DNA from: Escherichia coli
GTDB taxonomy: Bacteria; Pseudomonadota; Gammaproteobacteria; Enterobacterales; Enterobacteriaceae
NCBI RefSeq assembly: GCF_016903815.1
Contig: NZ_CP069974.1
Direction: 5' to 3' (one strand)
DNA: 64,000 nucleotides
Part shown: piece after piece, positions 10,804 to 64,000 of the stretch
Numbering within the stretch: position 1 is the first letter of the stretch
Layout: every line of letters starts with the position of its first letter
Program-made: the position numbers and the translations under genes
Notes under the pieces: model-generated
Database searches by the model: none
Told to the model about the DNA's origin: nothing
What the model saw: only the letters and a program-made list of their open reading frames with translations

Positions 10804-11531
10804 CAGTTGCCCTCCCCGTCACGGATGACATACACATCCATGCACGCACCTGCCAGTAACTGGCTGGCAGGCTGGCTGAACATCACGGCACGGGTTCCCG
10901 GCTGCCAGAAGTCACTTTCCCGGATATTCAGGGCAGACAGCGTTTTATTTTCCACGGCAAAGCGGACCATCTTCAGGTGATTCCCCGTCCATACGGCATC
11001 TGCCACTGAAGACAGCCCCGCCGGGGCCTGCAGGGTTTCCTTTGTCACAGGAACCTGATACCAGCCTGCAGGTAATTTTCCGCCACGGACAGCCTGGCTG
11101 ATGGTCACAAGCAGGGATTCGTAAGGCGTGGACGTTTCCCACGCACCGGCTTCTTCTCCGGTTCCGCGCAGGTCACTGACCAGCTGAATGGTACGCCCCG
11201 CGCCTTCACGGGGAACGGCCTGAATGGAAAGATTCAGACCACGTTCTGTTTCCAGAATGAACGTAAAGGGCTTTTTGTTGACGGTGGCAACCACCACACC
11301 GCCGGAGGCGGTCTGCTCATTATTGGTCAGGGCACCATCCAGACTGTTCACGGCGATAATCCGGTCACCGGGAACGGTAAACAGATTCGGGCTGGTATTG
11401 CTGATGGCAATACTGGCCTGACCACCGTTCACCATTGGCACCACGGTGGGGGACAGCGTACCGTTTGCGGCCATCACGCTGCAGGAAAAAAACAGGCTGC
11501 CGAATATTATTGCCGTATTATTTTTTCTCAT
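10803..11531 (-). CDS. traK: TraK (VirB9-like)
   Basis: 242 aa with a signal peptide, in the F order traE-traK-traB, with ATGA-type overlap to traB. Confidence 0.9.
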
Positions 11532-12084
11532 CGTCTGTTTCCCCGAAATTATCCAGCCAGGTCACCCCGTTTTCCCGCTTCAGAATAAGGATGTAATGTT
11601 TGATATCAGTGAAAGGTTTTGAATCACCAATCCAGGTTTTAAGCACACCACGAATTTCCACACGGCCATACTGAGGCCAGACACGAACACTGGTCTGGAA
11701 AAAGGCTGAGTTCACGTTATCGTTTTTAATACGCTTCGCTTCTTCAGCCAGAATAACTTTCATCTGGTTCTGTGCGCCCGGGCGGATATATTTCAGAAGC
11801 GCCTGATGTGAGGCATCGACGGTTTCTGATGAAACATTCAGACGGAGGGCAATAAATGACAGCGCCATCTGCTGTAAATAAGAGGCGTCGGCACTGTTCT
11901 GTGACACGGCAAAGGGGGCATTAAATGCCATTGGCGTCACGGCAGTGCGTTGCTCATTCTGAAGACGGTAGTTATTCACCCCCTGAATGACGTTAACAGA
12001 GAGGCTGAGAACAATAAGCACTGACATAAATATAAAGGCGATGGCCATTACACGACTGGTACTTAAACGGGCACCGTGTTCCAT
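11518..12084 (-). CDS. traE: TraE
   Basis: 188 aa with an N-terminal TM segment, colinear with F TraE. Confidence 0.9.
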
Positions 12085-43256: not shown

Positions 43257-44228
43257 TCAGGGTGCTGGCTTTTCAAGTTCCTTAAGAATGGCCTCAATTT
43301 TCTCTATACACTCAGTTGGAACACGAGACCTGTCCAGGTTAAGCACCATTTTATCGCCCTTATACAATACTGTCGCTCCAGGAGCAAACTGATGTCGTGA
43401 GCTTAAACTAGTTCTTGATGCAGATGACGTTTTAAGCACAGAAGTTAAAAGAGTGATAACTTCTTCAGCTTCAAATATCACCCCAGCTTTTTTCTGCTCA
43501 TGAAGGTTAGATGCCTGCTGCTTAAGTAATTCCTCTTTATCTGTAAAGGCTTTTTGAAGTGCATCACCTGACCGGGCAGATAGTTCACCGGGGTGAGAAA
43601 AAAGAGCAACAACTGATTTAGGCAATTTGGCTGTGTTGATACAGCGGGTAATAATCTTACGTGAAATATTTTCCGCATCAGCCAGCGCAGAAATATTTCC
43701 AGCAAATTCATTCTGCAATCGGCTTGCATAACGCTGACCACGTTCATAAGCACTTGTTGGGCGATAATCGTTACCCAATCTGGATAATGCAGCCATCTGC
43801 TCATCATCCAGCTCGCCAACCAGAACACGATAATCACTTTCGGTAAGTGCAGCAGCTTTACGACGGCGACTCCCATCGGCAATTTCTATGACACCAGATA
43901 CTCTTCGACCGAACGCCGGTGTCTGTTGACCAGTCAGTAGAAAAGAAGGGATGAGATCATCCAGTGAGTCCTCAGTAAGCAGCTCCTGGTCACGTTCATT
44001 ACCTGACCATACCCGAGAGGTCTTCTCAACACTATCACCCCGGAGCACTTCAAGAGTAAACTTCACATCCCGACCACATACAGGCAAAGTAATGGCATTA
44101 CCGCGAGCCATTACTCCTACGCGCGCAATTAACGAATCCACCATCGGGGCAGCTGGTGTCGATAACGAAGTATCTCCAACCGGTTGAGTATTGAGCGTAT
44201 GTTTTGGAATAACAGGCGCACGCTTCAT
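43257..44228 (-). CDS. sopB: SopB (ParB-type partition protein)
   Basis: 323 aa [57 protein letters not shown].... Confidence 0.95.
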
Positions 44229-45403
44229 TATCTAATCTCCCAGCGTGGTTTAATCAGACGATCGAAAATTTCATTGCAGACAGGTTCCCAAATAGAAAGA
44301 GCATTTCTCCAGGCACCAGTTGAAGAGCGTTGATCAATGGCCTGTTCAAAAACAGTTCTCATCCGGATCTGACCTTTACCAACTTCATCCGTTTCACGTA
44401 CAACATTTTTTAGAACCATGCTTCCCCAGGCATCCCGAATTTGCTCCTCCATCCACGGGGACTGAGAGCCATTACTATTGCTGTATTTGGTAAGCAAAAT
44501 ACGTACATCAGGCTCGAACCCTTTAAGATCAACGTTCTTGAGCAGATCACGAAGCATATCGAAAAACTGCAGTGCGGAGGTGTAGTCAAACAACTCAGCA
44601 GGCGTGGGAACAATCAGCACATCAGCAGCACATACGACATTAATCGTGCCGATACCCAGGTTAGGCGCGCTGTCAATAACTATGACATCATAGTCATGAG
44701 CAACAGTTTCAATGGCCAGTCGGAGCATCAGGTGTGGATCGGTGGGCAGTTTACCTTCATCAAATTTGCCCATTAACTCAGTTTCAATACGGTGCAGAGC
44801 CAGACAGGAAGGAATAATGTCAAGCCCAGGCCAGCAAGTGGGCTTTATTGCATAAGTGACATCGTCCTTTTCCCCAAGATAGAAAGGCAGGAGAGTGTCT
44901 TCTGCATGAATATGAAGATCTGGTACCCATCCGTGATACATTGAGGCTGTTCCCTGGGGGTCGTTACCTTCCACGAGCAAAACACGTAGCCCCTTCAGAG
45001 CCAGATCCTGAGCAAGATGAACAGAAACTGAGGTTTTGTAAACGCCACCTTTATGGGCAGCAACCCCGATCACCGGTGGAAATACGTCTTCAGCACGTCG
45101 CAATCGCGTACCAAACACATCACGCATATGATTAATTTGTTCAATTGTATAACCAACACGTTGCTCAACCCGTCCTCGAATTTCCATATCCGGGTGCGGT
45201 AGTCGCCCTGCTTTCTCGGCATCTCTGATAGCCTGAGAAGAAACCCCAACTAAATCCGCTGCTTCACCTATTCTCCAGCGCCGGGTTATTTTCCTCGCTT
45301 CCGGGCTGTCATCATTAAACTGTGCAATGGCGATAGCCTTCGTCATTTCATGACCAGCGTTTATGCACTGGTTAAGTGTTTCCATGAGTTTCATTCTGAA
45401 CAT
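44228..45403 (-). CDS. sopA: SopA (ParA Walker-type ATPase)
   Basis: 391 aa with deviant Walker [12 protein letters not shown], matching F SopA. Confidence 0.95.
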
Positions 45404-47510: not shown

Positions 47511-48317
47511 TCAGGATAATTGTTTCAGCATCGCAACCGCATCAGACTCCGGCATCGCAAACTGCACCCGGTGCCGGGCAGCCACATCCAGCGCAAAAAC
47601 CTTCGTGTAGACTTCCGTTGAACTGATGGACTTATGTCCCATCAGGCTTTGCAGAACTTTCAGCGGTATACCGGCATACAGCATGTGCATCGCATAGGAA
47701 TGGCGGAACGTATGTGGTGTGACCGGAACAGAGAACGTCACACCGTCAGCAGCAGCGGCGGCAACCGCCTCCCCAATCCAGGTCCTGACCGTTCTGTCCG
47801 TCACTTCCCAGATCCGCGCTTTCTCTGTCCTTCCTGTGCGACGGTTACGCCGCTCCATGGGTATTTTCAGTGTTGCCACCATCGTCTGCAGCTGGCTGAC
47901 GTACCAGGAGTCAGAGAGCGGAACCAGCCGGTGAGTCTGCTGACCGGCGGGCATTCTCCCCGCCGTCCTGGCAGCTTTTTCGGTCCGTTGTTTCAGGGTC
48001 GCAAGCTGCACAAACGGATACGGAGGCGCAAGCGAAAAATCCCCCCGCGTCAGCGCCAGTGCTTCATTAATGCGTGCTCCGGTGTTCCACAGTGTGGCCA
48101 GCAGCATCTTGCGGTGCAGATCCGGGACGTAATGGAGCAGGGCACTCACTTCCGGAGCCAGCAGATATTTTGGCAGTTCATCATGGACCATCGACATCTG
48201 GCGAAGTGCCAGAGCTGCCGGATAATCAATGGCAACAGGCAGCGATGCAGGCTGCCCGGCAGAATACACTGCCGGTACCATGACTGCAGACTGGCTGTGT
48301 ATAACGGAGCCTGACAT
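47511..48317 (-). CDS. resD: ResD tyrosine site-specific recombinase (F D protein)
   Basis: 268 aa with the C-terminal catalytic region ...HTFRHSYAMHMLYAGIPLKVLQSLMGHKSISSTEVYTKV. Confidence 0.9.
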   Translation of the reverse strand: MSGSVIHSQSAVMVPAVYSAGQPASLPVAIDYPAALALRQMSMVHDELPKYLLAPEVSALLHYVPDLHRKMLLATLWNTGARINEALALTRGDFSLAPPYPFVQLATLKQRTEKAARTAGRMPAGQQTHRLVPLSDSWYVSQLQTMVATLKIPMERRNRRTGRTEKARIWEVTDRTVRTWIGEAVAAAAADGVTFSVPVTPHTFRHSYAMHMLYAGIPLKVLQSLMGHKSISSTEVYTKVFALDVAARHRVQFAMPESDAVAMLKQLS

Positions 48318-48843
<526 letters not shown>

Positions 48844-49234
48844 AGCACACCTCTTTTTGACATACTTCGGGTATACATATCAGTATATATTCTTATGCCG
48901 CAAAAATCAGCGCGCAAATACGCATACTGCTATCTGGCTTTTAGTAAGCCTTATGTATTTTACCTTTCGTTATGTTAACCAATAAAAATTAAAATCTGAC
49001 TTATAAAAACAAAGCGTAATTACCGCATTCCCGTTTCGTATGGATCCGACTTTATTTGAATAAACGACTTTCCGGAAGTGTACAACGCTGAGAAAATCAT
49101 CATATCGCTGTTTTCCGCCCCTGCACGGCGCATCACAGGTCAGGGAAATAACACAACATATAGTGTCATCAGCAGCTGAATCCGGCACCACATGTTGTGC
49201 TTACAGGAAGTGGCGTTGTGTGGGGGGGAGAGGA

Positions 49235-49281
49235 AGATCCGTAACTGCCGGAAACCGGATCTCAGAAGAGAAAAAGAAGAG
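49235..49281 (+). repeat. hairpin-plus-polypurine junction repeat, copy 1
   Basis: AGATCCG-N14-CGGATCT (49235-49262), then the purine run AGAAGAGAAAAAGAAGAG (49264-49281). Another purine run (GGGGGGGAGAGGAAG) lies just upstream. Confidence 0.7.
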
Positions 49282-49476
49282 TTGTTGCAAGATAAGCACA
49301 AAAAATGGTGGTTTGTTGAGATATGGTAATTATTGCTCAGTGGGCAAAATTCAGAACAGAGTTAGCCTGAAATTGCAAAAAACAGGCCAGAAAAACTTTT
49401 TTCAGCTCATTTTCATCAACCGGCCTTAAAGGCTGCTTCGGATTTCCTAAATACAGTTTTACATAAGGAACATCGT

Positions 49477-49674
49477 ATGACTGTATTTCTCATGGCCGTT
49501 TTCTATGGCCTCTTAAAAACTGGCTCTCTCATTGCCCTACTTGTTGATGCCTATAAAGGCTGGACCTTGTTCTGGAAGAACTATGATCGACTCCCCCATA
49601 TCTACCGTTCGCAATGGCGATATCAGCGACGCTTCATTCTCAAAAGAATCTGGAAACGCATCAGAACCGGCTAA
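49477..49674 (+). CDS. possible small membrane protein (65 aa)
   Basis: RBS-like AAGGAA 7 nt before the ATG. One hydrophobic helix MTVFLMAVFYGLLKTGSLIALLV, then a W/R/K-rich tail. Convergent with the HTH gene, overlapping it by 4 nt. Confidence 0.35.
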   Translation: MTVFLMAVFYGLLKTGSLIALLVDAYKGWTLFWKNYDRLPHIYRSQWRYQRRFILKRIWKRIRTG

Positions 49675-49955
49675 GCCGGTTCTTCCAGCAGCATCCCCAA
49701 CCCGGCCAGCCAGCACAGACAGCACCAGGTGGTGAACACCATTCTGGTCTCGCCGGATTTCCACTTACGGATGGTGCGCTCGTCCACATCTAGCCGGTTG
49801 GCCAGCTGGATATCTGTGAGCGGGATCAGCGCCCGGACCACGCTGACTTCACTGGCTGAAGGTGCCATCCAGCTCTCGCCCGAGCACAGTGTTTCAGGGT
49901 TAAATTTCTCTAGTTCTATCAGCCCCTGAACCTGACGGGCATTTTCTGCCTTCAT
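49671..49955 (-). CDS. XRE/HigA-like helix-turn-helix protein (94 aa)
   Basis: ...SASEVSVVRALIPLTDIQLANRLDVDERTIRKWKSGETRMVFTTW..LAGL fits the antitoxin/regulator HTH pattern. It lies 20 nt after the DUF3800 gene. Confidence 0.6.
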   Translation of the reverse strand: MKAENARQVQGLIELEKFNPETLCSGESWMAPSASEVSVVRALIPLTDIQLANRLDVDERTIRKWKSGETRMVFTTWCCLCWLAGLGMLLEEPA

Positions 49956-49974
49956 ATGCGGTTAACCTTTCTGA

Positions 49975-51108
49975 TCAGGATTGCGACACACTTTGTACAC
50001 GATGGGCAAGACGGCGCGTTTCTTCCACGGCCCTGAGTTCATTTGCTTTTTCTATCATTTCTGCGGTTGGTTCAGAAAGTTTTTCAAAAAACTCCTTAAA
50101 CCTCTTTGCAACTGACTGCAGAGAAACACTGTCAGTTCTCGCTGTTTTAAGATTGGTGTAGACGAGGCGGGAAAGGGGTTTGGTCAGTTCCTTCCGTTCC
50201 ATGTATCGTTTGAAGATCCAGAGATAAATATCAACCAGTTCCAGCCCGGCACTCATCGTTCCCGACTGGAAGACAAGCGGTTTTGCTGGCATGTTCTTCA
50301 TATCCATGACAGGCAAACCCGGCCCCAGTGCCCACGGCTGTTCGCGGATCTGGTAGTAAAACTCGTTCAACTCCCGCTGGGTGGTGTTGAACTGTGACTG
50401 CTGGTCAACAATGATATCTGCTTTCCGGTTCGGTGCCCCCAGACGAGAGCAGATCCCGTGCAAAACGGACTGAAAACCAATCATATTGGGCATGATCTGC
50501 AACTTTTCCTTATTGGTTTTGCAGTTGTACCCCAGCTCATCAAAGTTGACCATCGCCCAAGATAGGGCATCGGTAATGAGTTCAACTGAACGGGCATCAC
50601 CCAGAGAGTGAACGCGCTGAAGCAGCACTCCACAAACCTCACTGAATAATGAGCAAGAACGTTCATCATGAGCCTCAAGACGGGCACGCCACGCTTTTTC
50701 AGCCAGCTCATCATCAAACAGATTAGACAGATTCAGCAGCAGGGGATAGCGCAGAGGGGTCCAGTAGGCACTCCAGGGCACAACCGGATTCAGTCCCTGA
50801 TCAAACACCTGGTCGAAGAACGAAATAATGGCGTGATCGCGCTTAACCACCTGCCAGATATCAAACCGTATCCGGTGATTTTTCTGCAGGACCAGCAGCG
50901 TATCCACAACTTCTGAAAGGCGGTGCACGCCCAGTTCCGCAGCGTGCAGGCGCTCCACGCCCAGAGTTTTGCGTAATGCGGCAAGATCCGCTTCAGCAAC
51001 CTTATCTAGGTCAGCCTCTGAGGACAGTACTCCGTAGGAGAGGATTGGCTGGGTTTTGTCAAAAAGGTTTCGGCCAGTCTGGCCTGTTTCATCCACATAA
51101 AAGTGCAT
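49975..51108 (-). CDS. DUF3800-like protein (377 aa)
   Basis: The N-terminus MHFYVDETGQTG matches the [FY]xDE[ST]G signature recalled for DUF3800. The rest is not recognised. Confidence 0.55.
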   Translation of the reverse strand: MHFYVDETGQTGRNLFDKTQPILSYGVLSSEADLDKVAEADLAALRKTLGVERLHAAELGVHRLSEVVDTLLVLQKNHRIRFDIWQVVKRDHAIISFFDQVFDQGLNPVVPWSAYWTPLRYPLLLNLSNLFDDELAEKAWRARLEAHDERSCSLFSEVCGVLLQRVHSLGDARSVELITDALSWAMVNFDELGYNCKTNKEKLQIMPNMIGFQSVLHGICSRLGAPNRKADIIVDQQSQFNTTQRELNEFYYQIREQPWALGPGLPVMDMKNMPAKPLVFQSGTMSAGLELVDIYLWIFKRYMERKELTKPLSRLVYTNLKTARTDSVSLQSVAKRFKEFFEKLSEPTAEMIEKANELRAVEETRRLAHRVQSVSQS

Positions 51109-51190
51109 TCAGATATCCTTTTCAAGGCAGGAGGAAAAGAAACGGCATAATTCAAATCAATGTAAAACCTTCCTGTTGCCGGCTGCAAGT

Positions 51191-51236
51191 GATCCTCTTA
51201 AATGAGTTTTCGGATCTAAGGAAGAGAGAAGAGGGA
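51191..51236 (+). repeat. hairpin-plus-polypurine junction repeat, copy 2
   Basis: GATCC-N16-GGATC (51191-51216), then AAGGAAGAGAGAAGAGGGA (51218-51236). The next approx. 40 nt resemble those after copy 1 (TTRTTGYA.GA...GCACAAAAA). Confidence 0.7.
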
Positions 51237-51370
51237 TTATTGTATGAATGGCACAAAAAGCGACGGATTGTTGCGGTGAATAGATTATTGCTTAGGAAGC
51301 AAAATTTATAGTAATTGATAACTCTAATGCAATTAAACAGCGACCCCATCAGGGGTCACCGTAATTTTGA

Positions 51371-54300
51371 TCAGCGATGTTCAAACCGCGCCACTGGAGT
51401 ATCAGTGATTTCCATCTCTATTTCCCAGAGCGTTTTCATCACACCTTCAAGTGGATCGTCGCTGCTGCGGTAGAAGGTATTGAAAAGGGTTCCATCCGGA
51501 TACCTGAACAGCCTGAGTTCACCAAAGGATTCAGCACTGACCATAAGCGAAAACTCCTGTTCGGAATTGAGGACAAGGTAAATAAGACAGTTATTGATCC
51601 TGAAGGGCAGAGAGCGGCTACCCCTGGCCGATACATCAACATGTATGCTAAACGCGTCATGCCTTTCCGGCTGATAGACCAGTTCCCTCAGTTCCTCGCT
51701 GAAGCGGGAACCATAGATCACCAGAATGTAGTTATTCTGATCAGCGGACCGTTGCGCGACTTCCATTAACAGCGTTTCGAGGTTATTGACCTCAATCGTT
51801 AATTTAGCCTGTGACTGCCACAGTACATAATGCAGTCTGCGGAGAATATTTCTGTTCACTTCTGATACCGAAGGGAAATCTCCGTAGTCAGTCTGATTAA
51901 GCTCTCTGGCAACATACTCTTTGGAAACACCAACAGGAATATATATCGCCAGCCAGTTGCGATCACATTCTGAATTTTGAGTAAACGTGAAGTATTTAAG
52001 CAGAACATCTTCAGACAATGCCCCAGGAAGTTCATTTGTAAGACGAGCATCAGTGTTTCTCAGTCGAGCCTGGTCTACTTCAGCAGCAACGATATCTGCC
52101 GTTTTACTACGACTGAATACATCTATGTATTTATCCAGAACATCATTAAAGAACACCACATTCGTTGCATAATCCGCTTCTGAAATGATATAACCTTCAT
52201 AGGGAACTGAAGGGTCTCGTTTCAGTCGTTTAAGAATAGAAATTATTCTGTCTTTACTGGAATAGGAAAACACCCCTCCAGCCAGGGCTTCATTAACACG
52301 CTGTGTAACCTGCTCCGCAGGCCTTGCGAGCTTTATAGCCAGCAAGGCAAACGCCCCGTAGAGACTCCCTAAATCTTCATATTCCCCTGTATACATACGC
52401 CCGGGAATGTAAGGCCTTTCATTATATGAGTTCATAACCTCAATGGTTTCTGATAACCCGCTGTACCAGCTTGTATTCGTATGCAGATTGCAGTGCTCAA
52501 TTCTCAGTATCATGTCAATGATATCGACAGAACGTCTGAATGCAGGCGTCAGCGTGTCATGTGTATCTCTATCTTCATATAATTCAGACATAATGAGATG
52601 ATTCACAAGATCGGCTAAGTCTATATTTTTTTGCGATTCAAAATGAGCAATAAGATACCCTGCCATTAACAACCGCAAATCGGATAAGGCATTTGCAAAC
52701 ATAATGGACAAAGCGGCATCTTTTTTATACTTGCTGCCCCTGAGTAACATATTCCACTGCGGTTCTGTCTCCTTCAGGGACAGATAATCCGGAGTCAGGA
52801 AGAAACTGTGCCAGCGGTACTCTTCCTCCCAGTAACGTGTAAACCGGCTCTGATTAAACCAGAGGCAGAGAACGTCGTGAGCATATCGCACGGAAGAGGC
52901 ATTATCGGCAACCACTGACGGAATAAGAAGCCTGGCGGTATTATGCAGATGATACATCAGGCGGCCAGTAGAATCTTCACTCCCGGGTTTGCCAGTGATC
53001 GTGGTCATACTCCAGCCTTCCCACAGTCCGATATACCCGCGGATAAGGGCCTGGTGAGTCAGCTCCTGGCTGGCCGAGAGGGGGCCCCCCAGTCCCGCTT
53101 TCCACTCGTTTAACACATGCCACACCCTGAAAAGCGAGAGTAAAAACTGTCTGAAATCGGTAAAACACGTGCTCTGTGTTTTTCTGTACACACGCAATGG
53201 AATGAGCATCGATTCACGGAAATATTCGCCTGAATATTCCGTTGATTTTACGGATTCACGAAAAAACTTTCTCAATTCATAATGGAATGAATCGCTGAAA
53301 GTATGGCTAAAACCTGATTCTTTTACTTCATCCAGATAATTTTTATCGACCTCGTAATTGTAACTTCTTTTGATAGAGGTATAGGTATCTGTTAATCGTT
53401 CAATCCCTGTTCTGAAGACGCTAATATTTTTATCGTTAAGCGCATCGTAAGCCTCACCAAAGAAATCAAAAGTAATATCATCCAGATCCCTTTTGTTCTC
53501 AGGGCGCCCTGTTACAATACAACGACGCAATAACCACCGCCACAATCCTGAAACAGGCTTGACATTTCTCGATGACAATAAAGTCAGTTCACCAGAACGA
53601 ACACCAAAGGAGGGCAGAATGATAATTTCCGCATCCTGCCCATCTACCGCCTCTAGCCTTCTCAGTAGGAATAAAAAAGGCCTTATATAAATATCAGTAA
53701 CAACATCACCTTTACTGATATTAGATTTAACATGAAGCATATCGTCTTTCTCAGAAATTGAGTAAGGCAGTATTTTAATATTACCGAGGTAATTTTGACC
53801 TACATGACCCCCCGGGTAACGCAGCCACGCCTGAATATATGCTTTTTGAATGTAGTCATCCACTATCTGAGATAAAAAAAACTTATTCATTAGTCGATCG
53901 CGTTTGCTCTCATCCAGGACATTCAGACTGGAGACGAAGAACCAGATAGACAGAATAATATTGAAAAGCATCCACACAAAAGCTGTTACGGCAAAAGAAG
54001 TATTAAGATATCCGTCACCTATAGATAACGTCATACCGCCCAGCACGACAAATGCAGCCAGTGAAAGACCACTCAGGCCCGCAAACATATATCCGGAATG
54101 AAGTTGATACGCGGACTGAATATGGATCCTTGCTGATTTCTTTTGAAATAAAACACTTATAAGCCCCACAACCAGCGGAAATACAATACCGATTATAGTC
54201 AACTGGCTACCCAGTAAATTAGACATCCAATCTGAAAGCTTGGTAATGCCCTTAAAATGCTGCACAGCGAAAGGTAGCAATACAGGGCGAAAATATTCGA

Positions 54301-54490
54301 CCACGCCAACAGCCCCGAAGGCTGCGGACCATAGAACCAGCATAGCCCGGACGTAATGGGTGGAGCAGGAAACAAGTATTCTCTCCACCGGGTTCCAGCG
54401 AAGTTTTTTGTAATCCCGGTTCGACTTCAGGCTCCGTCGGAGTTCAGCTCTCACCTGCCATGAGACACTTTTCAGAAGTTTTCCAAACAT
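51371..54490 (-). CDS. large membrane-anchored protein of unknown function (1039 aa)
   Basis: About five hydrophobic helices in the first approx. 190 residues, followed by an approx. 850-aa soluble region with no motif I recognise. AT-rich codon usage. Hairpin GTGACCCCTGATGGGGTCGC follows the stop. Confidence 0.7.
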   Translation of the reverse strand: MFGKLLKSVSWQVRAELRRSLKSNRDYKKLRWNPVERILVSCSTHYVRAMLVLWSAAFGAVGVVEYFRPVLLPFAVQHFKGITKLSDWMSNLLGSQLTIIGIVFPLVVGLISVLFQKKSARIHIQSAYQLHSGYMFAGLSGLSLAAFVVLGGMTLSIGDGYLNTSFAVTAFVWMLFNIILSIWFFVSSLNVLDESKRDRLMNKFFLSQIVDDYIQKAYIQAWLRYPGGHVGQNYLGNIKILPYSISEKDDMLHVKSNISKGDVVTDIYIRPFLFLLRRLEAVDGQDAEIIILPSFGVRSGELTLLSSRNVKPVSGLWRWLLRRCIVTGRPENKRDLDDITFDFFGEAYDALNDKNISVFRTGIERLTDTYTSIKRSYNYEVDKNYLDEVKESGFSHTFSDSFHYELRKFFRESVKSTEYSGEYFRESMLIPLRVYRKTQSTCFTDFRQFLLSLFRVWHVLNEWKAGLGGPLSASQELTHQALIRGYIGLWEGWSMTTITGKPGSEDSTGRLMYHLHNTARLLIPSVVADNASSVRYAHDVLCLWFNQSRFTRYWEEEYRWHSFFLTPDYLSLKETEPQWNMLLRGSKYKKDAALSIMFANALSDLRLLMAGYLIAHFESQKNIDLADLVNHLIMSELYEDRDTHDTLTPAFRRSVDIIDMILRIEHCNLHTNTSWYSGLSETIEVMNSYNERPYIPGRMYTGEYEDLGSLYGAFALLAIKLARPAEQVTQRVNEALAGGVFSYSSKDRIISILKRLKRDPSVPYEGYIISEADYATNVVFFNDVLDKYIDVFSRSKTADIVAAEVDQARLRNTDARLTNELPGALSEDVLLKYFTFTQNSECDRNWLAIYIPVGVSKEYVARELNQTDYGDFPSVSEVNRNILRRLHYVLWQSQAKLTIEVNNLETLLMEVAQRSADQNNYILVIYGSRFSEELRELVYQPERHDAFSIHVDVSARGSRSLPFRINNCLIYLVLNSEQEFSLMVSAESFGELRLFRYPDGTLFNTFYRSSDDPLEGVMKTLWEIEMEITDTPVARFEHR

Positions 54491-54600
54491 AGATATCCTG
54501 CGTATTACATAAGAAATTTTATGAATAATAAGCGGTAGGAACCTTTTTTTCTCTGGAAAATGTCACCCGATACCCTTCATACAGGCTTTGTCATCCTAAA

Positions 54601-54652
54601 ATCCGGTTTAACCTTTTTTCGGATCTCCGATAAAAAAGAAAGAAATAGAGAT
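54601..54652 (+). repeat. hairpin-plus-polypurine junction repeat, copy 3
   Basis: ATCCG-N14-CGGAT (54601-54624) overlaps the palindrome TTTTTTCGGATCTCCGATAAAAAA, then the A/G-rich run AAAAAGAAAGAAATAGAG. Confidence 0.6.
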
Positions 54653-54796
54653 ATGCATAAACATATGCCTGGCATCTACATATGCTACCGCTATACATAT
54701 GCCACACATCTGCCTATACTAAACATATGCACACACCCGGTGCTTTGAATATTCCGGATATGTTTCACATATCCATATGCTCGGGAGAGAAAGAAC

Positions 54797-55027
54797 ATGA
54801 GAACCGTATCGATATTTAAAAATGGCAACAACCGCGCCATCCGTCTGCCTCGTGATCTGGATTTTGAGGGGGTGAGCGAGCTCGAGATCGTCCGGGAAGG
54901 GGACAGCATCATCCTGCGCCCCGTCCGGCCAACCTGGGGATCATTCCTAGAGTACGAAAAAGCCGATCCAGATTTTATGGCGGAGCGCGAGGATGTTGTC
55001 AGCGACGAAGGGCGATTTAACCTGTGA
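54797..55027 (+). CDS. vapB: VapB/VagC antitoxin (AbrB/SpoVT fold)
   Basis: 76 aa MRTVSIFKNGNNRAIRLPRDLDFEGVSELEIVREGDSIILRPV.... Confidence 0.9.
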   Translation: MRTVSIFKNGNNRAIRLPRDLDFEGVSELEIVREGDSIILRPVRPTWGSFLEYEKADPDFMAEREDVVSDEGRFNL

Positions 55028-55440
55028 ACAAGACTTATATGCTTGATACCTGTATCTGCTCGTTCATCATGCGTGAACAGCCAGAAGCCGTCCTGAAGCG
55101 TCTGGAGCAGGCGGTGCTACGCGGCCACCGTATAGTGGTCTCGGCCATCACCTACTCTGAAATGCGCTTCGGGGCTACCGGCCCAAAGGCCTCACCACGT
55201 CACGTCCAACTGGTCGATGAATTCTGCGCCCGCCTCGATGCCATCCTGCCCTGGGATCGCGCCGCAGTAGACGCCACCACGAAGATTAAAGTGGCACTGC
55301 GGCTGGCCGGGACGCCGATCGGCCCGAACGACACGGCGATTGCCGGGCACGCCATCGCCGCCGGGGCGATACTGGTAACGAATAATACAAGAGAATTTGA
55401 GCGAGTGCCTGACCTGGTGCTGGAAGACTGGGTGAAGTAA
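55024..55440 (+). CDS. vapC: VapC/VagD PIN-domain toxin
   Basis: 138 aa (GTG start overlapping the vapB stop) ...YMLDTCICSFIMRE...TNNTREFERVPDL with PIN acidic residues. Confidence 0.9.
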   Translation: MNKTYMLDTCICSFIMREQPEAVLKRLEQAVLRGHRIVVSAITYSEMRFGATGPKASPRHVQLVDEFCARLDAILPWDRAAVDATTKIKVALRLAGTPIGPNDTAIAGHAIAAGAILVTNNTREFERVPDLVLEDWVK

Positions 55441-55601: not shown

Positions 55602-57740
55602 TCAAGCGATACGGGCAACCGAGCTCTGGTTTGCTGCCGGTGGCAGGGCGATGAGCTTGTCACATTCCATAATCACGTACTCCGGGATGAGATCGAATCT
55701 GGACGGATCTAGTTGACAGATGAACTCATTTTCAATGTGGTACGTTTCGTTAACGAATTTTCGTATTACCGGATGGTCCTGATCCAGTTCCAGTAAACGG
55801 AATACCTGCAGTTTTTCATAGCCGTTACGACAGCGACGGTACAGGTTTTTTATTTCATCTGGGCTGCTGACGAGAGCCTGAAGTCGCGGGTAATCAAAAC
55901 TGTCCACATACTCCCGGATATCCCGCAAGGCCTGCTGAATTTTCTCAGGAGCCATTTTGGGATAGCCCGAGCCCGCAGCGGCAGGCTCGCGATAATCCAG
56001 CGGGGCGACGCGTCGATGGAATAGATTGGATAGAAGCTGATAAGCATCACCACGTTCGTCAACGATTTCAAAGTAGCGACGAAGATAGATGAGCTTAATG
56101 ATCTCCTCACAGTCTGCTGACGCGGTGATGGATTTGCAGATCTGCATGAATGTCATGATATCGCCGTCGTTAACAGGTAATTCTTCTATGACTCCAGCAG
56201 ACAGGCGCAGGCAGGAGGCGGTCACCTGATTACTGAACAACCTTCTGACTGACTTCAGCGTGTCAATCACAGGCTCCACGTCATGCGTCAGCATAAGTAC
56301 AGTCCGGTTCTTCAGGCATTCACCACTTGCACGTCTGAACAGCATTTCAAGAATGGCAAACTTCTTGTTTTTATCAAAAGAAGATATGGGATCATCAAGG
56401 ATAATCAGTCCCGGGTTTTTTGACAGGCATTCATACATGAATAACACAATCGCAAAGGCGTTCCGTTCTCCATAGCTGAGATGCTGGCTACCGCCGCTGA
56501 CGTACCCGTCAAAATCTATGTGTCGTAGCCTGAGTTTTCTCTGCTCTCCCTCGCCGGCTATATCCACCCTGTATTTATAGCCTGCATAAGTGAGGAAATT
56601 ATTGATGTTTGTTTTGTGCTGTGCGATCAGCCGGATCATGCTGTCCCGGTGCCGGTTAATTTTTCCCTGCAGCGGTCCGGCAAGGTTTATCAGGTCCATA
56701 AGGGCCGCGTTCAGTCTGTCGGTGATCCCCTGCATGAGTTCGGATTGCAGATCAGGGAAGAACTGCAGGTCAATCAACCTGGCAGTGAGCACCTCCCGAA
56801 CGTTCTGCTGTTCCTGCAGGCTGAAAACATTCAGGCCTCTCAGCGCAGTGAGTTTCTCTGTCAGCGTATCGGTCTGGCGTTTCAACGCCACTAGGTACTC
56901 GATATGTTCGGCTTCCGGACCGTTCTGAAGCATAGTAATGGCCAGAAGGCGTTCTCTGGCGCTCTCCGTCAGGTAATTACCGAGGTTTTCCACCAGTCTG
57001 ATGATAGCGGTCAGGTTTTTAATGGTGGATTTATCGTATTCCTCTCTGACTTGGCGAATTTGTGCTTCCTTTCCCGTGATATCACCGGTACAGAACGGAC
57101 AGCAGCCATCCGAAAGGGGCGAAAACTCGAGTCCCTTTGTCTGCCAGTCAATCCATTCCACGCGGCGTTCACTGCGGATGTAGGGTTGATAGTTCTCAAG
57201 ACCAGCCGGAATGTGGTGTATTTTATTTCCGCCTGACAGACCTCTCATGCCGGTTGAAGAACGTGAAATCCCGGAACTGGTTGATTTGAAAGCATTACTG
57301 AGTTCCTGTAGATGGTCTATCAGAGAGTTCAGCTCAGTGTGATCCGTGAAAACAGCCCGGATCTTTTGCGTCATTTCTTCTATTTCACGCTCTCTTTCCG
57401 CATGGGCTTGATTGCGGATAAGAATATTAAAGCTGTCACTGATGAGCTCGTCCGGTTGGAACGTAAACTGACTGACGTACTCCTCGTTGAAGCACATCAC
57501 GTCCCCAATCCCGTCAGCACCGATGACAATGGGCCCGGTGCTATCGGGGTTTTCTCCGCGCAGCCGGAAGGGCATCAGTGCCTGTAGTCCCTGAATGTCG
57601 TCCCGCGCCGCACAGCTTATGGCCCGTGACAGCGTACTTTTTCCAGTACCATTTGGCGCAAACTTAATGTTCAGTTTATCGGCAGTGAGGGTGATATGTG
57701 CTCGTACGATGTTATTGCAGTGGCGTATTTCAATGTCCAT
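55602..57740 (-). CDS. AAA_13/RloC-like ABC-type ATPase with coiled-coil zinc hook (712 aa)
   Basis: Walker A APNGTGKST, signature LSYGERNA, Walker B LIILDDP and H-loop LTHD are split by a long helical insert containing CCPFC. The approx. 170-aa C-terminal domain is of unknown function. Confidence 0.7.
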   Translation of the reverse strand: MDIEIRHCNNIVRAHITLTADKLNIKFAPNGTGKSTLSRAISCAARDDIQGLQALMPFRLRGENPDSTGPIVIGADGIGDVMCFNEEYVSQFTFQPDELISDSFNILIRNQAHAEREREIEEMTQKIRAVFTDHTELNSLIDHLQELSNAFKSTSSGISRSSTGMRGLSGGNKIHHIPAGLENYQPYIRSERRVEWIDWQTKGLEFSPLSDGCCPFCTGDITGKEAQIRQVREEYDKSTIKNLTAIIRLVENLGNYLTESARERLLAITMLQNGPEAEHIEYLVALKRQTDTLTEKLTALRGLNVFSLQEQQNVREVLTARLIDLQFFPDLQSELMQGITDRLNAALMDLINLAGPLQGKINRHRDSMIRLIAQHKTNINNFLTYAGYKYRVDIAGEGEQRKLRLRHIDFDGYVSGGSQHLSYGERNAFAIVLFMYECLSKNPGLIILDDPISSFDKNKKFAILEMLFRRASGECLKNRTVLMLTHDVEPVIDTLKSVRRLFSNQVTASCLRLSAGVIEELPVNDGDIMTFMQICKSITASADCEEIIKLIYLRRYFEIVDERGDAYQLLSNLFHRRVAPLDYREPAAAGSGYPKMAPEKIQQALRDIREYVDSFDYPRLQALVSSPDEIKNLYRRCRNGYEKLQVFRLLELDQDHPVIRKFVNETYHIENEFICQLDPSRFDLIPEYVIMECDKLIALPPAANQSSVARIA

Positions 57741-58204: not shown

Positions 58205-59200
58205 ATGGCGACCACAGTAATAGCTGCCTTTAACGAATTTATGAAAGATACCGTGAATCTCAAAAAGGCAGATACCGATGACGCGCGTGCAAGTCGCGAC
58301 TGGCTTATCGGTAAGATGAATGATTTTGAGAAGGACGATAAATTTCCGGTGAGTTTTCCAGCGATCCATATTGCCTTTGGCTCCTTTGCCAGAAGAACCA
58401 AAATCCGTCCGCTTGATGATATCGATCTGATGTTTGGCTTAACCGGGCAAGGTGCCACCTATACCATCCTGAGTGACCGGATAACTGTAACCTCCTCCGG
58501 AGAGGGGTCACGTCTGCACAGTTACCGCCATTCCGGAGCTGACACCGTCTGCTCCGTCAGAATTCTGAATGCCTTTAAAAACCGCCTGCAGGACATTGCC
58601 CAGTACGCCCAGGCTGATATCAGGCGTAACCAGGAAGCTGTCACGCTGAAACTGGTCAGCAAGGACTGGAATTTTGACATCGTCCCCTGCTTTATTACCA
58701 GCGAAGATGCCTTTGGACGGACTTACTACCTGATCCCCGATGGCAACGGCCACTGGAAGTTTACCGACCCCCGTAAAGACAGGGACAGAGTCACTACTAT
58801 CAATGTGCAGAATAACGGCAATGTGCTCAATGTCATCAGAGCAGTCAAATACTGGCAGCGGCGACCGACGATGCCATCCATGAGTTCCTACCTGCTGGAA
58901 ACGCTGATTCTGGACTATTACGCTGGCAGGACATCCTGCTCATCGTTTGTTGACATGGAGCTGGAAGCGCTTTTCCGCCACCTTGGTCAATCCGTGCGGT
59001 ACTCTGTCAACGATCCCAAAGGCATACAGGGTGATATCAACTCACTTTCAGCCGAGGCACGTAAGGCGATATCGGACAGATGTTATCTCGATGCGCAAAA
59101 GGTATCGGAGGCGAGATGGTTTGAAAATAATAAAGAGTATGAAAAATCCATCAATAAATGGCGCGATGTGTTCGGGCCATTCTTTCCTGTTTACGGGTGA
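58205..59200 (+). CDS. SMODS/CD-NTase-like nucleotidyltransferase (CBASS cyclase)
   Basis: 331 aa with the pol-beta NTase signature FGSFARRTKIRPLDDIDLMF and third carboxylate NFDIVPCF. Confidence 0.75.
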   Translation: MATTVIAAFNEFMKDTVNLKKADTDDARASRDWLIGKMNDFEKDDKFPVSFPAIHIAFGSFARRTKIRPLDDIDLMFGLTGQGATYTILSDRITVTSSGEGSRLHSYRHSGADTVCSVRILNAFKNRLQDIAQYAQADIRRNQEAVTLKLVSKDWNFDIVPCFITSEDAFGRTYYLIPDGNGHWKFTDPRKDRDRVTTINVQNNGNVLNVIRAVKYWQRRPTMPSMSSYLLETLILDYYAGRTSCSSFVDMELEALFRHLGQSVRYSVNDPKGIQGDINSLSAEARKAISDRCYLDAQKVSEARWFENNKEYEKSINKWRDVFGPFFPVYG

Positions 59201-59203
59201 ATC

Positions 59204-60136
59204 ATGAATGCCATTTACACAAACCAGTCGACCAGAGAAAACATGGATTTACTGTATGCGCAGGCCCGTGTCTACGACAGGGTAAAAAACTGGAACAGAC
59301 TGAATTTTCTCTTCAGCATCATCGTACCGCTCCTGCTTTCTTTCGTTACCGTATACAACCGGAGCCGGGAATTTGTCGATTCAGAGTTGTTGTCTTCGCT
59401 GTTGGGGTTATATGGACTCCTGGTGCTTACCTTTAACATTGTTATCAGTGGACACATCTCGGCTCTGCGCAGGAAGGCAGCCTCAATCCAGGAAATGTAC
59501 GACTGCCGGGTACTTGGCATCCGGCGTAATGAACTGAAGGTGGAGGAGATCCCACGGGATGACATCATCCGGGAAGCTGCATATTTTAGAGACAGCCCGG
59601 AAAAAGCACGAAAGCGATTTGGCGAAGAGGGGTGGTACGTCAGTAAGGTGTATGACGCGCCGCAGGCCGTAATGGCGCTCCTTTGCCACGGAAAAAATCT
59701 CGGCTGGGACAAATCGCTCAGGGAGGTTCTGCACGTATTTTATCTTTCCGCTTTTATTGTCTCGCCTGTCGCGATGCTTGTTTACGGCATCGTCATGAAA
59801 TCCGGGCTGAATGAGATCCTCTTCTATGTGGTGTTCACACTGCCGGTCATCCGCTATTTCTTGCTTCAGTTTCTGGATAATCGCAGCAGTATGAAAAGAA
59901 GCGAGAAGCTGAAAAAGTACGTTGAGAAGGAATTATCCGGCATAAGGGTGTCCGGAAGGGCAGAAGAAGAGCAACTGGCTTATACGCTCCGGAATATCCA
60001 AGATGAGATGTTTACCTACCGGGCCTCATGTCCGCCCGTACCCAACGGTATTCAGCTGATAATGAAGCCCAAAAATGAACGAATTTATGTTGATTACTTT
60101 GAAACAAATCTGAAGGAGCTGCACCTTCAGAAGTAA
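59204..60136 (+). CDS. four-TM effector (S-4TM-like) of the CBASS operon
   Basis: 310 aa starting 4 nt after the cyclase stop. Two pairs of hydrophobic helices (about 33-51 and 62-85; 185-208 and 214-233) are separated by a soluble segment. Confidence 0.65.
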   Translation: MNAIYTNQSTRENMDLLYAQARVYDRVKNWNRLNFLFSIIVPLLLSFVTVYNRSREFVDSELLSSLLGLYGLLVLTFNIVISGHISALRRKAASIQEMYDCRVLGIRRNELKVEEIPRDDIIREAAYFRDSPEKARKRFGEEGWYVSKVYDAPQAVMALLCHGKNLGWDKSLREVLHVFYLSAFIVSPVAMLVYGIVMKSGLNEILFYVVFTLPVIRYFLLQFLDNRSSMKRSEKLKKYVEKELSGIRVSGRAEEEQLAYTLRNIQDEMFTYRASCPPVPNGIQLIMKPKNERIYVDYFETNLKELHLQK

Positions 60137-61183: not shown

Positions 61184-64000
61184 CTATATTTTTCCGCCTA
61201 CGCCTTTAAACTTCTCAATAAACGAGACGATTTTCTGGAAAACTGCCTGTTTTTTCGTTTTATATTGCGGGTTTAACGGACTAAGTTTTGGTAATGTCTC
61301 GTTTAATTCTGTGCCATTTTCGGTGGCGTATTCGCGTTTTAAAGACGTGCGAATATAGCGTTTCGCCGCCTCTTCATTGAGATTTTCTTCTTTAATCAAC
61401 GCTTCTGCTTCACGTAGCTGTTCGTGTTGAGCAAAGGTAAAGAACGCGTCAATGATGCTGGCTTTGTCTGGTAAATCATCCAGGTTCGTTTGCTGAATAA
61501 AATCGACCACCAGGCCCTCTTTCGCCCGGTTCCCCAGGCTTGAACGAATTAAGCGTTTGACCTCTTCGATCATTTCGCCCTTGCCTTTATTTTGTCTGTT
61601 ATGTTCGAAAATCAGTCCAAGGATATAATCCAGGTTTATTTCCTGAGACTTCAGCAAATCGACCTCAAAAACCACGTCATCCCAGTCAGTGGTTGATTTC
61701 TCTTTTTTCTCAGCTTCTTTCTCACGGCGCTGCCAGTCGCGAATATCGTTATAGGCAGAACGATAATCCTGAATCTTGCGATCAGCAGGGAGACGAATTG
61801 TTTGCAATTCAGCGAGCTTTTCATCATCCACATAATGTTCTGCTTTGAATTTTTCTACTGCAACAGGATCGCTAAGATCGATTTGTTGCAGGGCTTTCAG
61901 CGTGGCAAATTCATCATAGTTTTGCAGGATGTTCTCGGTACGCAGGTATTCACCAAACAGTTTTACGAAGTCTTTCTTCTCTTTTTCACTTTCAATACTG
62001 GCAGGGTCAGGGAACCGTTGTTCCAGTTCTGCAACTACTGCCATAAAGCCGCGCTTAGCTTCACCAGTAGCAGCATCAGTAAAGCCTTCCATATACTCTG
62101 CATAACTCTTTTCTAACACTACATTTTTGGTGTTTTTGTCACCAAACAGCGTTATGGCATCAATAGTTGAGCGTTCCAGATCCCGGAAAGTGACGATATT
62201 ACCGAAGGTTTTAGTGGCGTCATAAATGCGGTTGGTGCGGGAAAATGCCTGCATCAGGCCGTGAAAACGTAAGTTTTTATCGACGAATAGCGTGTTCAAT
62301 GTTGGAGCATCGAAGCCGGTTAAGAACATCCCCACGACAATTAGCAGATCGATATCCTGATTTTTAACCCGCTGGGCTAAATCACGATAGTAGTTCTGAA
62401 AACCGTTACTGTCGGTGCTAAAGTTAGTTTTAAAATGGCTGTTATATTCACGAATTGCAGCGTCCAGAAACTCTTTAGCACTGCTGTCCATTGCGCTGGT
62501 ATCAAAAGTTTCATCGGAAATCTCACCAATGGCATTTTGTTCTTCATTGGCGGCAAAGGAGAAGATTGTCGCAATACGCAGCGGTTTATAGGTAGCCGAT
62601 TTATTAGCGGCTTCTTCTTGTAACCGTTTAAACGTCGCATAATAGGCTTTCGCGGCATCCACGCTGCTCACTGCCAACATAGCATTAAAACCTTTTGAGC
62701 CAGGGAAGGTACGGTGAGTTTTCTGGCGGAAATTATTCAGAATATATTGCGTAATTTCCTGTATACGCATGGGATGAAGAAACGCCTGCTGATTTTCAGC
62801 CGCACTCAGTTTTTTCTCGTCGGTTTCTGTCTCTAAAGACTTAAACTGTGGCCGCACATCGTTGTAGTCCACCTTGAATTTAAGCACTTTTTCATCTCGA
62901 ATCGCATCGGTAATAACATATGAATGCAATTCACGACCAAATACGCTGGCGGTTGTTTCTGAGCCTAAGGCGTTTTCCGGGAAAATAGGGGTACCGGTAA
63001 AACCAAACTGATAATAGCGTTTGAATTTCTTCTTCAGGTTTTTCTGTGCTTCTCCAAACTGGCTGCGGTGGCATTCATCAAATATAAACACCACTTGCTG
63101 ATTGTATACAGGCAGGTCGCTTTCTGCTTTCATCAGGTTATTGAGTTTCTGAATAGTGGTGACGATAATTTTGTTATCATCCTTATCCAGATTTCGTTTA
63201 AGACCTGCGGTATTTTCCGATCCATTGACACTGTCTGGCGAAAAACGCTGATATTCCTTCATGGTCTGGTAATCGAGGTCTTTCCTGTCGACCACAAAGA
63301 AGACTTTATCAATAAAGTCCAGTTCTGTTGCCAGACGCGCGGCTTTAAAGCTGGTCAGGGTTTTACCAGAACCGGTAGTGTGCCAGATAAAGCCACCACT
63401 TTCGGGGGTAGACCAGTTTTTCGCTTTATAGGAGCTGTTGATTTTCCATAAGATACGCTCAGTGGCGGCAATCTGGTACGGTCGCATCACCAGTAGCGTC
63501 TGGCTACTGTCAAAAACGCTGTAGTTCACCAGAACATTCAGCAGAGTATGTTTCTGGAAAAAGGTAGCGGTAAAGTCTTTGAGGTCTTTAATCAGCGTGT
63601 TGTCTGATTTTGCCCAATTCATGGTGAAGTCAAAACTGTTTTTATCGCGCTTTGTCGTGTTGGCAAAATAATGGGTATCGGTGCCGTTAGAAATGACAAA
63701 CAGTTGCAGATACTTAAACAGGGAATTTTCGCTGTTAAAACTCTCTTTACTGTAACGATGTATCTGGTTGAAAGCCTCACGAATCGCCACCCCGCGTTTT
63801 TTTAGTTCGATTTGCACCAGCGGTAAACCATTAACCAGGATCGTGACGTCATAACGGTTAGCATGAGAACCCGTCTGTTCAAACTGCTGGATAATCTGCA
63901 CCTTATTGCGCATGAGATTCTTTTTATCTATCAAATAGATGTTCTCAAGACGCTCGTCATCAAAAATAAAGTCGCAAATATAGTCGATATGGATTTTACG
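61184..64000 (-). CDS. hsdR: type I restriction enzyme R subunit (type IC, EcoR124I-like), 5' end outside the window
   Basis: The reading frame is open to the window edge (…[34 protein letters not shown]…). Helicase motifs HTTGSGKT and [10 protein letters not shown]. Hairpin TCTTGCGGGTT-N-AACCCGCAAGA follows the stop. Confidence 0.9.

Follow-up and report, generated by a model that had tools for sequence, protein, structure and literature searches.

To our knowledge, the HK97 fold occurs elsewhere only in proteins that build closed shells, namely the capsids of tailed phages and herpesviruses, gene transfer agents, encapsulins and the capsid-remodelling proteins of satellites. The gene analysed here, called BIG throughout, encodes a 1039-residue protein in which a domain that very probably has this fold, as judged from predicted structures, is joined to four transmembrane (TM) segments. 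Together with three smaller open reading frames (ORFs) it lies in a stretch of 64,000 nucleotides of Escherichia coli DNA (contig NZ_CP069974.1 of assembly GCF_016903815.1; the whole stretch is referred to as the window, and positions are those of the window unless a locus number is given), which is part of an IncFIA/FIB/FII plasmid. Neither this gene nor any membrane-anchored HK97-fold defence protein was found described in the literature, and no publication citing the RefSeq accessions of the four proteins was found.

Among described proteins, one that shares the predicted fold of the BIG domain is Ccm of SaPIbov5 (PDB 7rwz_A), a satellite capsid homologue that interferes with the helper phage. 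Ccm is, however, soluble, has about 260–350 residues and co-assembles into small satellite capsids, whereas BIG has 1039 residues, four TM segments and a helical region of 430 residues; BIG is also set apart by its carriers, which are plasmids, integrative and conjugative elements (ICEs), restriction-modification (R-M) operons and prophages. Encapsulins of families 1 and 2 (about 260–400 residues) form closed shells around cargo enzymes encoded alongside, whereas BIG is membrane-anchored, lacks a conserved neighbour and matches neither Linocin_M18 nor a capsid family in Pfam. PrrC of EcoprrI and the Rlo genes are, like BIG, embedded in type I R-M operons, but PrrC is a soluble ABC-ATPase anticodon nuclease, and BIG is a membrane protein with neither an NTPase motif nor a match to any PADLOC model, the PrrC model included. 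Finally, the 4TM and S-4TM effectors of the cyclic oligonucleotide-based antiphage signalling system (CBASS) and the fun(Z)-type genes of phage P2 resemble BIG in combining an N-terminal multi-TM region with a cytoplasmic domain and in occupying defence islands or the prophage slot. BIG shows no sequence similarity to S_4TM, SLATT or PADLOC effectors, is three times larger and has a putative sensor of its own.

Relatives of the smaller genes have also been described. Proteins of the DUF3800 family are described as having an RNase H-like fold (PMC7736814, PMC10910872) and an N-terminal D-E and a C-terminal QxxD motif (PMC7736814); members occur in fusion or association with the reverse transcriptases (RTs) of type VII retrons, with Cas12a2 and with eleven RNA motifs that lack an explanation (PMC7736814, PMC10910872, PMC5737381). 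The KorC repressors of IncP, IncU and IncL plasmids are small plasmid helix-turn-helix (HTH) proteins encoded by the last gene of an operon, as is the HTH protein found here. In pOXA-48, korC is the final gene of an operon that is autoregulated, and losing korC is deleterious (PMC12365149).

The account that best explains the region, and that we regard as moderately likely as a whole, is that two independent cassettes lie side by side: BIG would be a one-protein abortive-infection (Abi) or exclusion device, and the neighbouring cassette would combine a DUF3800 nuclease with a kil/kor-like pair of genes. The four ORFs and the DNA between them are as follows.

49477–49674, plus strand: gene for a small membrane protein of 65 residues (ORF list)
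49671–49955, minus strand: gene for a KorC-like HTH regulator of 94 residues, last gene of the DUF3800 transcription unit (ORF list)
49975–51108, minus strand: DUF3800 gene, 377 residues, N-terminus MHFYVDETGQTG (ORF list; Pfam PF12686)
51109–51370: spacer of 262 nt between the DUF3800 gene and BIG
about 51335–51360, minus strand: terminator-like hairpin just behind the stop codon of BIG, GGTGACCCC-TGAT-GGGGTCGC followed by TGTTT (read from the sequence)
51371–54490, minus strand: BIG, 1039 residues, product identical to WP_023909028.1 (ORF list and annotation)

A sequence-only reading of the window had placed the four ORFs at these positions, and the ORF list agrees with it; the spacer and the hairpin are likewise present, and the convergent HTH and 65-residue genes overlap by 4 nt as had been stated. 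Between the DUF3800 and HTH genes lie 19 nt, not the 20 nt given there.

The predicted capsid fold of BIG

A word-indexed search retrieved 107 homologues of BIG, and an exhaustive profile search gave 782 cluster representatives at 50% identity, nearly all of them 1030–1150 residues long and matching from end to end. The protein can be divided into the following main parts.

53933–54355, minus strand: four-TM region, residues 46–186 (hydropathy, conservation and model helices)
52181–53485, minus strand: cytoplasmic, all-helical, alpha-solenoid-like region, residues about 336–770
51374–52180, minus strand: HK97 capsid-fold domain, residues about 771–1039 (predicted structure)

Hydropathy resolves four strong hydrophobic segments (residues 46–67, 97–115, 139–157 and 162–186), where about five TM helices had been counted before. 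This region is the best conserved part of the protein, with 40% identity to the most distant members as against about 16% for residues 193–335 and 771–1039, and it holds the invariant polar residues Q96, T98, Q116, Q129, S132 and N177. Basic charge is found in the N-terminus, in the loop 115–133 and after the fourth TM segment; under the positive-inside rule, this distribution would put both termini in the cytoplasm, and BIG is presumably an inner-membrane protein with both ends on that side.

The AlphaFold2 (AF2) model of BIG, built from a 67-sequence alignment, has a predicted local distance difference test score (pLDDT) of 86.6 and a predicted template modelling score (pTM) of 0.72. In this model, a bundle of helices at the N-terminus is followed by a small beta unit at residues 238–330, an all-helical part at 336–830 and an alpha/beta C-terminus; a second AF2 model reached a pLDDT of 91.3. 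The approximately 850 residues that follow the membrane region had been thought to hold no recognisable motif. In the predicted model, however, their C-terminal end is an HK97 capsid-fold domain, in which structure comparison identified the overall fold with its long spine helix, P-domain sheet and A-domain. About 200 of the approximately 270 residues align, so that peripheral elements may be missing, and sequence identity in these structural alignments is only 5–13%. The domain is the least conserved part of BIG.

At the level of sequence, BIG has no Pfam capsid or encapsulin match (Phage_capsid, Linocin_M18 and similar), and a Pfam scan of 24 relatives at E values up to 1 gave a sub-threshold match to SU10_MCP (E 0.16) in two of the 24 and otherwise noise. 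A profile search of PDB sequences with the BIG family was negative, and scans against Pfam, NCBIfam, PADLOC and PHROGs returned no match for either BIG or the 65-residue ORF. Because a sequence-level signal is absent, the relationship to capsid proteins is a structural one only.

Two cassettes and their junctions

Comparison of the region with related loci divides it into two cassettes that meet at a repeated junction element, designated R.

51207–54626: BIG cassette, with BIG as its single gene (blastn borders), 90–93% identical to Enterobacter contigs without the other three genes
49235–51128: cassette of the DUF3800, HTH and 65-residue genes (blastn borders and tblastn), 88.5% identical to an Enterobacter chromosomal island without BIG
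49235–49350, plus strand: junction element R, backbone-side copy (alignment A5)
51207–51308, plus strand: junction element R, second copy, between the DUF3800 gene and BIG (alignment A5 and blastn)

The BIG loci compared comprised 27 from contigs sampled at one genome per species and three exact look-ups, each with up to 10 kb of flanking DNA. As judged by tblastn, homologues of the DUF3800, HTH and 65-residue proteins lay within 10 kb of a BIG relative in none of these 30 further loci, which include the Enterobacter loci whose BIG relatives are 90–93% identical. The sequence-only reading had joined all four genes into one system and had named the absence of co-occurrence elsewhere as the observation that would speak against it; for BIG and the other three genes, that absence is what was found. 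In the Enterobacter contigs, the DNA that follows the BIG cassette resumes directly as a match to window positions 49018–49337 (blastn), and positions 49338–51206, with the other three genes, are therefore an insertion relative to those contigs.

The second cassette likewise occurs by itself. Genes for a 100% identical DUF3800 protein, with the HTH and 65-residue genes and without BIG, are present on metagenome contigs (L043 and L047–L049; locus numbers are those of our comparison), and in six loci DUF3800 is immediately preceded by vapBC, without an intervening BIG. Among plasmid records, BIG was found in 422, DUF3800 in 2551 and the joint arrangement in 171, the last being those that hold at least 80% of the 5.5-kb stretch with all four genes in one place; the best 25 are 100% identical. 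In the otherwise identical plasmids NZ_AP019191.1 and NZ_CP095637.1, the 5.5-kb region is interrupted by ISEc8 (IS66 family) or IS2. A soil metagenome contig (L098) carries BIG (85%) near DUF3800 (84%); since another gene intervenes between them, this appears to be an independent juxtaposition at the same hotspot.

Element R, which is found again and again at the borders of cassettes in plasmids and islands, is about 110 nt long and consists of a GATCCG-N12-14-CGGATC hairpin, then a stretch rich in purines and finally two GGATTATTGC-like boxes. Its inverted repeat of 6–7 bp is invariant in alignment A5, made of nine copies, two of them in the window and one in each of seven other loci (L006 13180–13320, L010 9840–9975, L015 13330–13445, L016 12310–12440, L032 7730–7880, L133 5585–5715 and L140 5600–5730). 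The element also lies behind BIG genes whose products are no more than about 27% identical (L015 and L016) and, in other plasmids, the 65-residue gene (blastn, L133–L141), and two copies of it flank the DUF3800 cassette. In addition, the 11-bp sequence TTTTCGGATCT (direct repeat family D2) is found at 51207–51217 and 54616–54626, that is, at both ends of the BIG cassette and exactly where homology to the Enterobacter contigs begins and ends. Element R may be a recombination site, for instance for the nearby ResD-type recombinase, and recombination at R is the most economical way to explain how two cargo cassettes came to be stacked here. Our confidence that the region is made up of two cassettes is high.

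The DUF3800 gene and the HTH/65-residue pair

The assignment of the 377-residue protein to DUF3800 was borne out by PF12686 (E 4e-6; 28 bits against a cut-off of 21), the match covering profile positions 1–148 of 149, and the family of homologues numbers at least 958. Across 33 homologues (alignment A4), the acidic residues D6, E7, D83, D91, D103, D235, E290 and D293 are invariant; among them are the N-terminal pair D6-E7, the aspartate of an invariant D235-Q-Q-S and both ends of the C-terminal motif E290-L-V-D293. Like the proteins of type VII retron and Cas12a2 TPR-DUF3800 loci, this protein matches PF12686 and has the D-E motif near its N-terminus; the RNase H-like fold reported for the family would be common to them as well. 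It appears to differ from them in its C-terminal motif, where E290-x-x-D293 stands in place of QxxD, the glutamine of which is not clearly present, and it is a stand-alone protein encoded apart from an RT, a CRISPR-Cas system or an RNA motif. In the 48.8–55.1 kb segment, no RT-sized ORF was seen beyond the ORFs already identified, and neither an Rfam match nor a CRISPR-Cas system was found; the DUF3800-associated RNA motifs (DUF3800-I to -XI, drum and skipping-rope) were absent from the cmscan of 48800–55100, which at E values up to 5 returned three chance-level matches only.

The protein matches no toxin family in Pfam, PADLOC or NCBIfam, a profile search of PDB sequences with the DUF3800 family returned nothing, and DUF3800 is absent from the INPHARED phage records. 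With its fold taken from the literature, the DUF3800 protein is most likely an RNase H-like nuclease, and it would be an independent candidate effector under the KorC-type regulator. Its neighbours include a HEPN pEK499_p136 gene with a gene for a 257-residue protein in 15–18 loci, DUF4145 in six, and Mrr-like or Dam-like genes elsewhere. The HEPN pEK499_p136 gene (166 residues) and its partner of 254–257 residues stand directly upstream of DUF3800, for example at L052 2548–3834, and DUF4145 is found as the alternative, for example at L032 5192–5950; either may represent a further two-gene module at the same hotspot.

The call of the 94-residue protein as an HTH regulator was confirmed in part, by phrog_8351 (E 3.8e-13) and by the korC names of its relatives, while HTH_3 scored 12.7 bits against a cut-off of 23, and no curated family matched. 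The HTH family comprises 197 proteins, many of them named korC by NCBI, and those members listed with a named source are all from Enterobacterales. As the cassettes are bounded by repeats, the NCBIfam family of Xer-activation factors VC1465/XafT was also considered; it was rejected because the match, with 21.5 bits (E 1.8e-4) far short of the cut-off of 70, probably reflects the generic HTH motif only.

Only in the close clade do the HTH and 65-residue genes follow DUF3800: 28 of the 101 loci have this order, and their DUF3800 identity is never below 79%. In other plasmids, a copy of the HTH protein that is 65% identical and a 65-residue partner that is 69–72% identical occupy the same backbone position, beside ccdAB or a ResD-like recombinase, and are preceded by a gene for a 530-residue protein and then by DUF4238; the stop of DUF4238 and the start of the HTH gene share 4 nt. 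The HTH gene follows DUF4238 in eight of the loci L133–L141 and a 283-residue ORF in L133. In L134–L141 (e.g. L140 2251–5484) the 530-residue and DUF4238 proteins replace DUF3800, and in L133 ORFs of 507 and 283 residues do so; HEPN pEK499_p136 with a 259-residue protein, and SMODS/S_4TM, lie upstream in the sister plasmids L134–L141. None of the four unassigned proteins of the sister plasmids has a PADLOC match, and since no PADLOC model matches it, the DUF4238 protein is not equated with a validated defence gene.

The 65-residue gene accompanies the HTH gene in nearly every HTH locus (it is truncated in L139). Its 17 distinct variants, of 65–70 residues, keep the frame intact, with a hydrophobic N-terminal helix of variable sequence and a conserved tail of the form Y-x-G-(W/L)-T-x-F...LP(H/Y)I...RRF..RIW(K/R)R, and it is therefore a real gene; the single TM helix and the basic, aromatic tail described from the sequence are kept across all variants. 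The gene may be a candidate for the toxin gene of a type I toxin–antitoxin (TA) locus, for which a hydrophobic protein of less than about 70 residues and an overlapping antisense transcript would be expected: it encodes 65 residues with one TM helix and a basic tail, and its 3' end overlaps the convergent HTH gene by 4 nt; no antitoxin RNA of Rfam was found in 48.8–55.1 kb. The arrangement is not that of a type II TA locus, as the 65-residue gene is convergent with the HTH gene and has no family match. The HTH protein, which the sequence-only reading had assigned to the antitoxin or regulator type, is not a typical antitoxin partner of DUF3800 either: it pairs with the 65-residue ORF on the backbone side and is also found behind DUF4238.

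The two genes form a conserved pair at the ccdAB end of the island. By analogy with plasmid kil/kor loci, the 65-residue protein may be a toxic 'kil' partner restrained by the HTH protein or by the convergent transcript. The gap of 19 nt to DUF3800, or the overlap of 4 nt with DUF4238, argues for co-transcription with the HTH gene, and the KorC-type protein would repress the DUF3800 operon; a scan for sigma-70 promoters gave no match on the minus strand. Alternatively, the HTH and 65-residue genes could be an addiction pair of the plasmid backbone, of the kil/kor or type-I-toxin-like kind, with DUF3800 as unrelated cargo that the HTH protein does not regulate. This we consider possible, if rather doubtful. 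Homology of the backbone DNA to other plasmids (47523–49845) begins at resD, passes through ccdAB and the 65-residue gene and reaches into the HTH gene at its 3' end; the pair stays constant while the gene upstream of it switches between DUF3800 and DUF4238; moreover, the 65-residue protein resembles a small membrane toxin, the transcripts converge and overlap as they do in some type I TA loci, and korC of pOXA-48 cannot be inactivated. All three genes, however, have also travelled together into a chromosomal island of Enterobacter, away from ccdAB (L032–L035), and the close spacing of the HTH start to either upstream gene indicates a common transcript.

Genomic contexts and proposed role of BIG

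In marine gammaproteobacteria, BIG is part of an hsdM-hsdS-BIG-hsdR operon (L022, L024, L025, L028 and L152). It lies between hsdS and hsdR in Aliikangiella, Kangiella, Psychromonas and one IMG/VR contig (L022, L024, L028 and L152), and within the type I R-M operon of a second Psychromonas (L025), where it is seemingly interrupted by a 388-residue ORF on the opposite strand (10391–11557). In L024, an AAA_5 ATPase gene and a McrC-like gene come after the R-M operon with BIG. Elsewhere the neighbours of BIG are McrBC (Salmonella, cargo region of an ICE), an AAA_15 ATPase with an integrase (Pantoea), DpdC (Enterobacter, L006), and an integrase with a replication initiator (L143). In eight IMG/VR contigs (L145–L151 and L153), which are predicted prophages with P2-type tail genes, homologues with 24–35% identity adjoin the operon for tail sheath, tube and tape measure; the neighbours were scanned in one of these contigs (L147, 3411–13120), and L153 has the same ORF layout. 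This position resembles the Z/fun accessory slot of P2. BIG is absent from the INPHARED phage records, and tallies of Pfam and PADLOC matches over 142 genes, up to three on each side in 26 loci, revealed no conserved partner gene.

In the window, the four ORFs separate the plasmid backbone from a row of defence genes, and the location in a defence island that had been proposed is correct, for vapBC, PDC-S06, type I CBASS and type I R-M all adjoin, in this order to the right of BIG.

43257–45403: sopB/sopA, plasmid backbone, left of the four ORFs
48318–48843: ccdB/ccdA, just left of the four ORFs; repE and resD are also on this side
55602–57740, minus strand: 712-residue ATPase, full-length match to PADLOC candidate PDC-S06 (E 3e-286)
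58205–59200, plus strand: type I CBASS cyclase (E 4e-152)
59204–60136, plus strand: CBASS 4TM effector (E 1e-165)
61184–63934, minus strand: 916-residue ORF, HsdR of a type I R-M system by comparison with the annotated identical plasmid NZ_CP024863.1

The type I R-M system runs past the end of the window. Three repeats with 17-nt spacing that contain ACATATGC lie at 54658–54721, just upstream of vapB (54797), and are probably the VapB operator.

The contexts of BIG are typical of defence genes, and a defence-type role is plausible for both cassettes, with the best contextual support for BIG, which is probably a defence or exclusion protein. No named defence system was recognised by PADLOC, Pfam or NCBIfam, as the sequence-only reading had stated; none of the four proteins belongs to a PADLOC-DB v2 model, the only hit being one to BrxL at E 0.015 for DUF3800. 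Its idea of a novel abortive-infection system survives for BIG, for which a defence-type role is the likeliest, and not for the four genes as a system. Since the TM region is the most conserved part of BIG and the HK97 domain the least, a division into effector and sensor suggests itself, in which the four-TM region would be the effector; a conserved membrane module with a fast-evolving cytoplasmic domain is a layout common to single-protein abortive-infection devices. The capsid-like cytoplasmic part might interact with a protein of phage head assembly, be it the major capsid protein, the scaffold, the prohead protease or the portal, or, alternatively, oligomerise like a capsomer, and either event would switch the TM bundle to a membrane-permeabilising state, so that infection stops. 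In a variant of this scheme, BIG would poison capsid assembly by tethering capsomers to the membrane. We put forward only tentatively that the sensing of capsids is the trigger of BIG. Similarly speculative is the more specific proposal that BIG is a membrane-tethered homologue of phage major capsid proteins, which by HK97 mimicry would join, sense or poison head assembly and then, through the four-helix module, kill or protect the cell; BIG would in that case found a new class of immune protein.

Several observations weigh against parts of this account. The HK97 fold is seen in predicted models alone, with no sequence-level similarity to capsid families, and it could serve oligomerisation rather than sensing; the TM region is unlike known pore-forming effectors in Pfam, PADLOC, NCBIfam and PHROGs. 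About half of the 27 species-level loci have no obvious defence neighbour in the Pfam tally, and since the HsdM proteins of the five R-M-embedded cases are related (74–80% identical), these may represent one old insertion that was kept, not five. For the second cassette, no partner is conserved across the whole DUF3800 family, whose neighbours vary, and the HTH protein is only 33% identical, over 60 residues, to an IncL plasmid HTH regulator.

Some of the same facts could be read as signs of a non-immune function, in which BIG is a domesticated relative of capsids or encapsulins that acts as a membrane shell or scaffold, or provides entry exclusion or another benefit to its element, and hitch-hikes in cargo hotspots. 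Such a function would fit a fold otherwise known only in shell formers, the many neighbourhoods without a recognisable defence gene, and carriage mostly by plasmids, ICEs and prophages. We nevertheless consider it unlikely, since the position between hsdS and hsdR is kept across at least four genera, BIG adjoins McrBC, DpdC, CBASS and PDC-S06 and takes an accessory slot beside prophage tail genes, neither cargo-type genes nor partner genes recur beside it, and its capsid-like domain evolves fastest, as expected for a sensor in an arms race. Still less probable is that the HK97 likeness is a prediction artefact or a convergent alpha/beta arrangement with no link to capsids; the missing sequence-level signal and the low identity in structural alignments would agree with this. 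Least of all, and with very little probability, do the four genes form one membrane-anchored Abi or plasmid-competition system with BIG as effector, DUF3800 as enzyme, the HTH protein as regulator and the 65-residue protein as toxin, for although they are adjacent, three of the four in the same orientation, in an arrangement 100% conserved in 171 plasmids and juxtaposed a second time in diverged form in L098, the other three genes are missing from all 30 further BIG loci, the DUF3800 cassette is far commoner without BIG, the terminator-like hairpin, the 262-nt spacer and the duplicated R separate the parts, and L098 has a gene between BIG and DUF3800.

With BIG and the DUF3800 cassette read as independent units, the corrected map of this plasmid region shows separate cassettes that are linked through a recurring junction element, and a pair of KorC-like regulator and small membrane protein is seen to close islands that differ in their effector gene (DUF3800 or DUF4238). 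What is new in BIG is the predicted capsid-fold domain, which is unprecedented in a single-gene membrane candidate of the Abi type: a widespread family, with 782 representatives and 422 plasmid records, would fuse a capsid fold to a conserved membrane module. If BIG is antiviral, this would be a new host-side use of a viral structural fold and would offer a simple one-gene system in which to ask how capsid assembly is sensed or sabotaged; if the capsid-mimic proposal is true, it would be the first HK97-fold protein to act as a cellular antiviral receptor or effector and not as a shell subunit. Because BIG is carried on epidemic IncF resistance plasmids of E. coli, it may shape the phage susceptibility of clinical strains.

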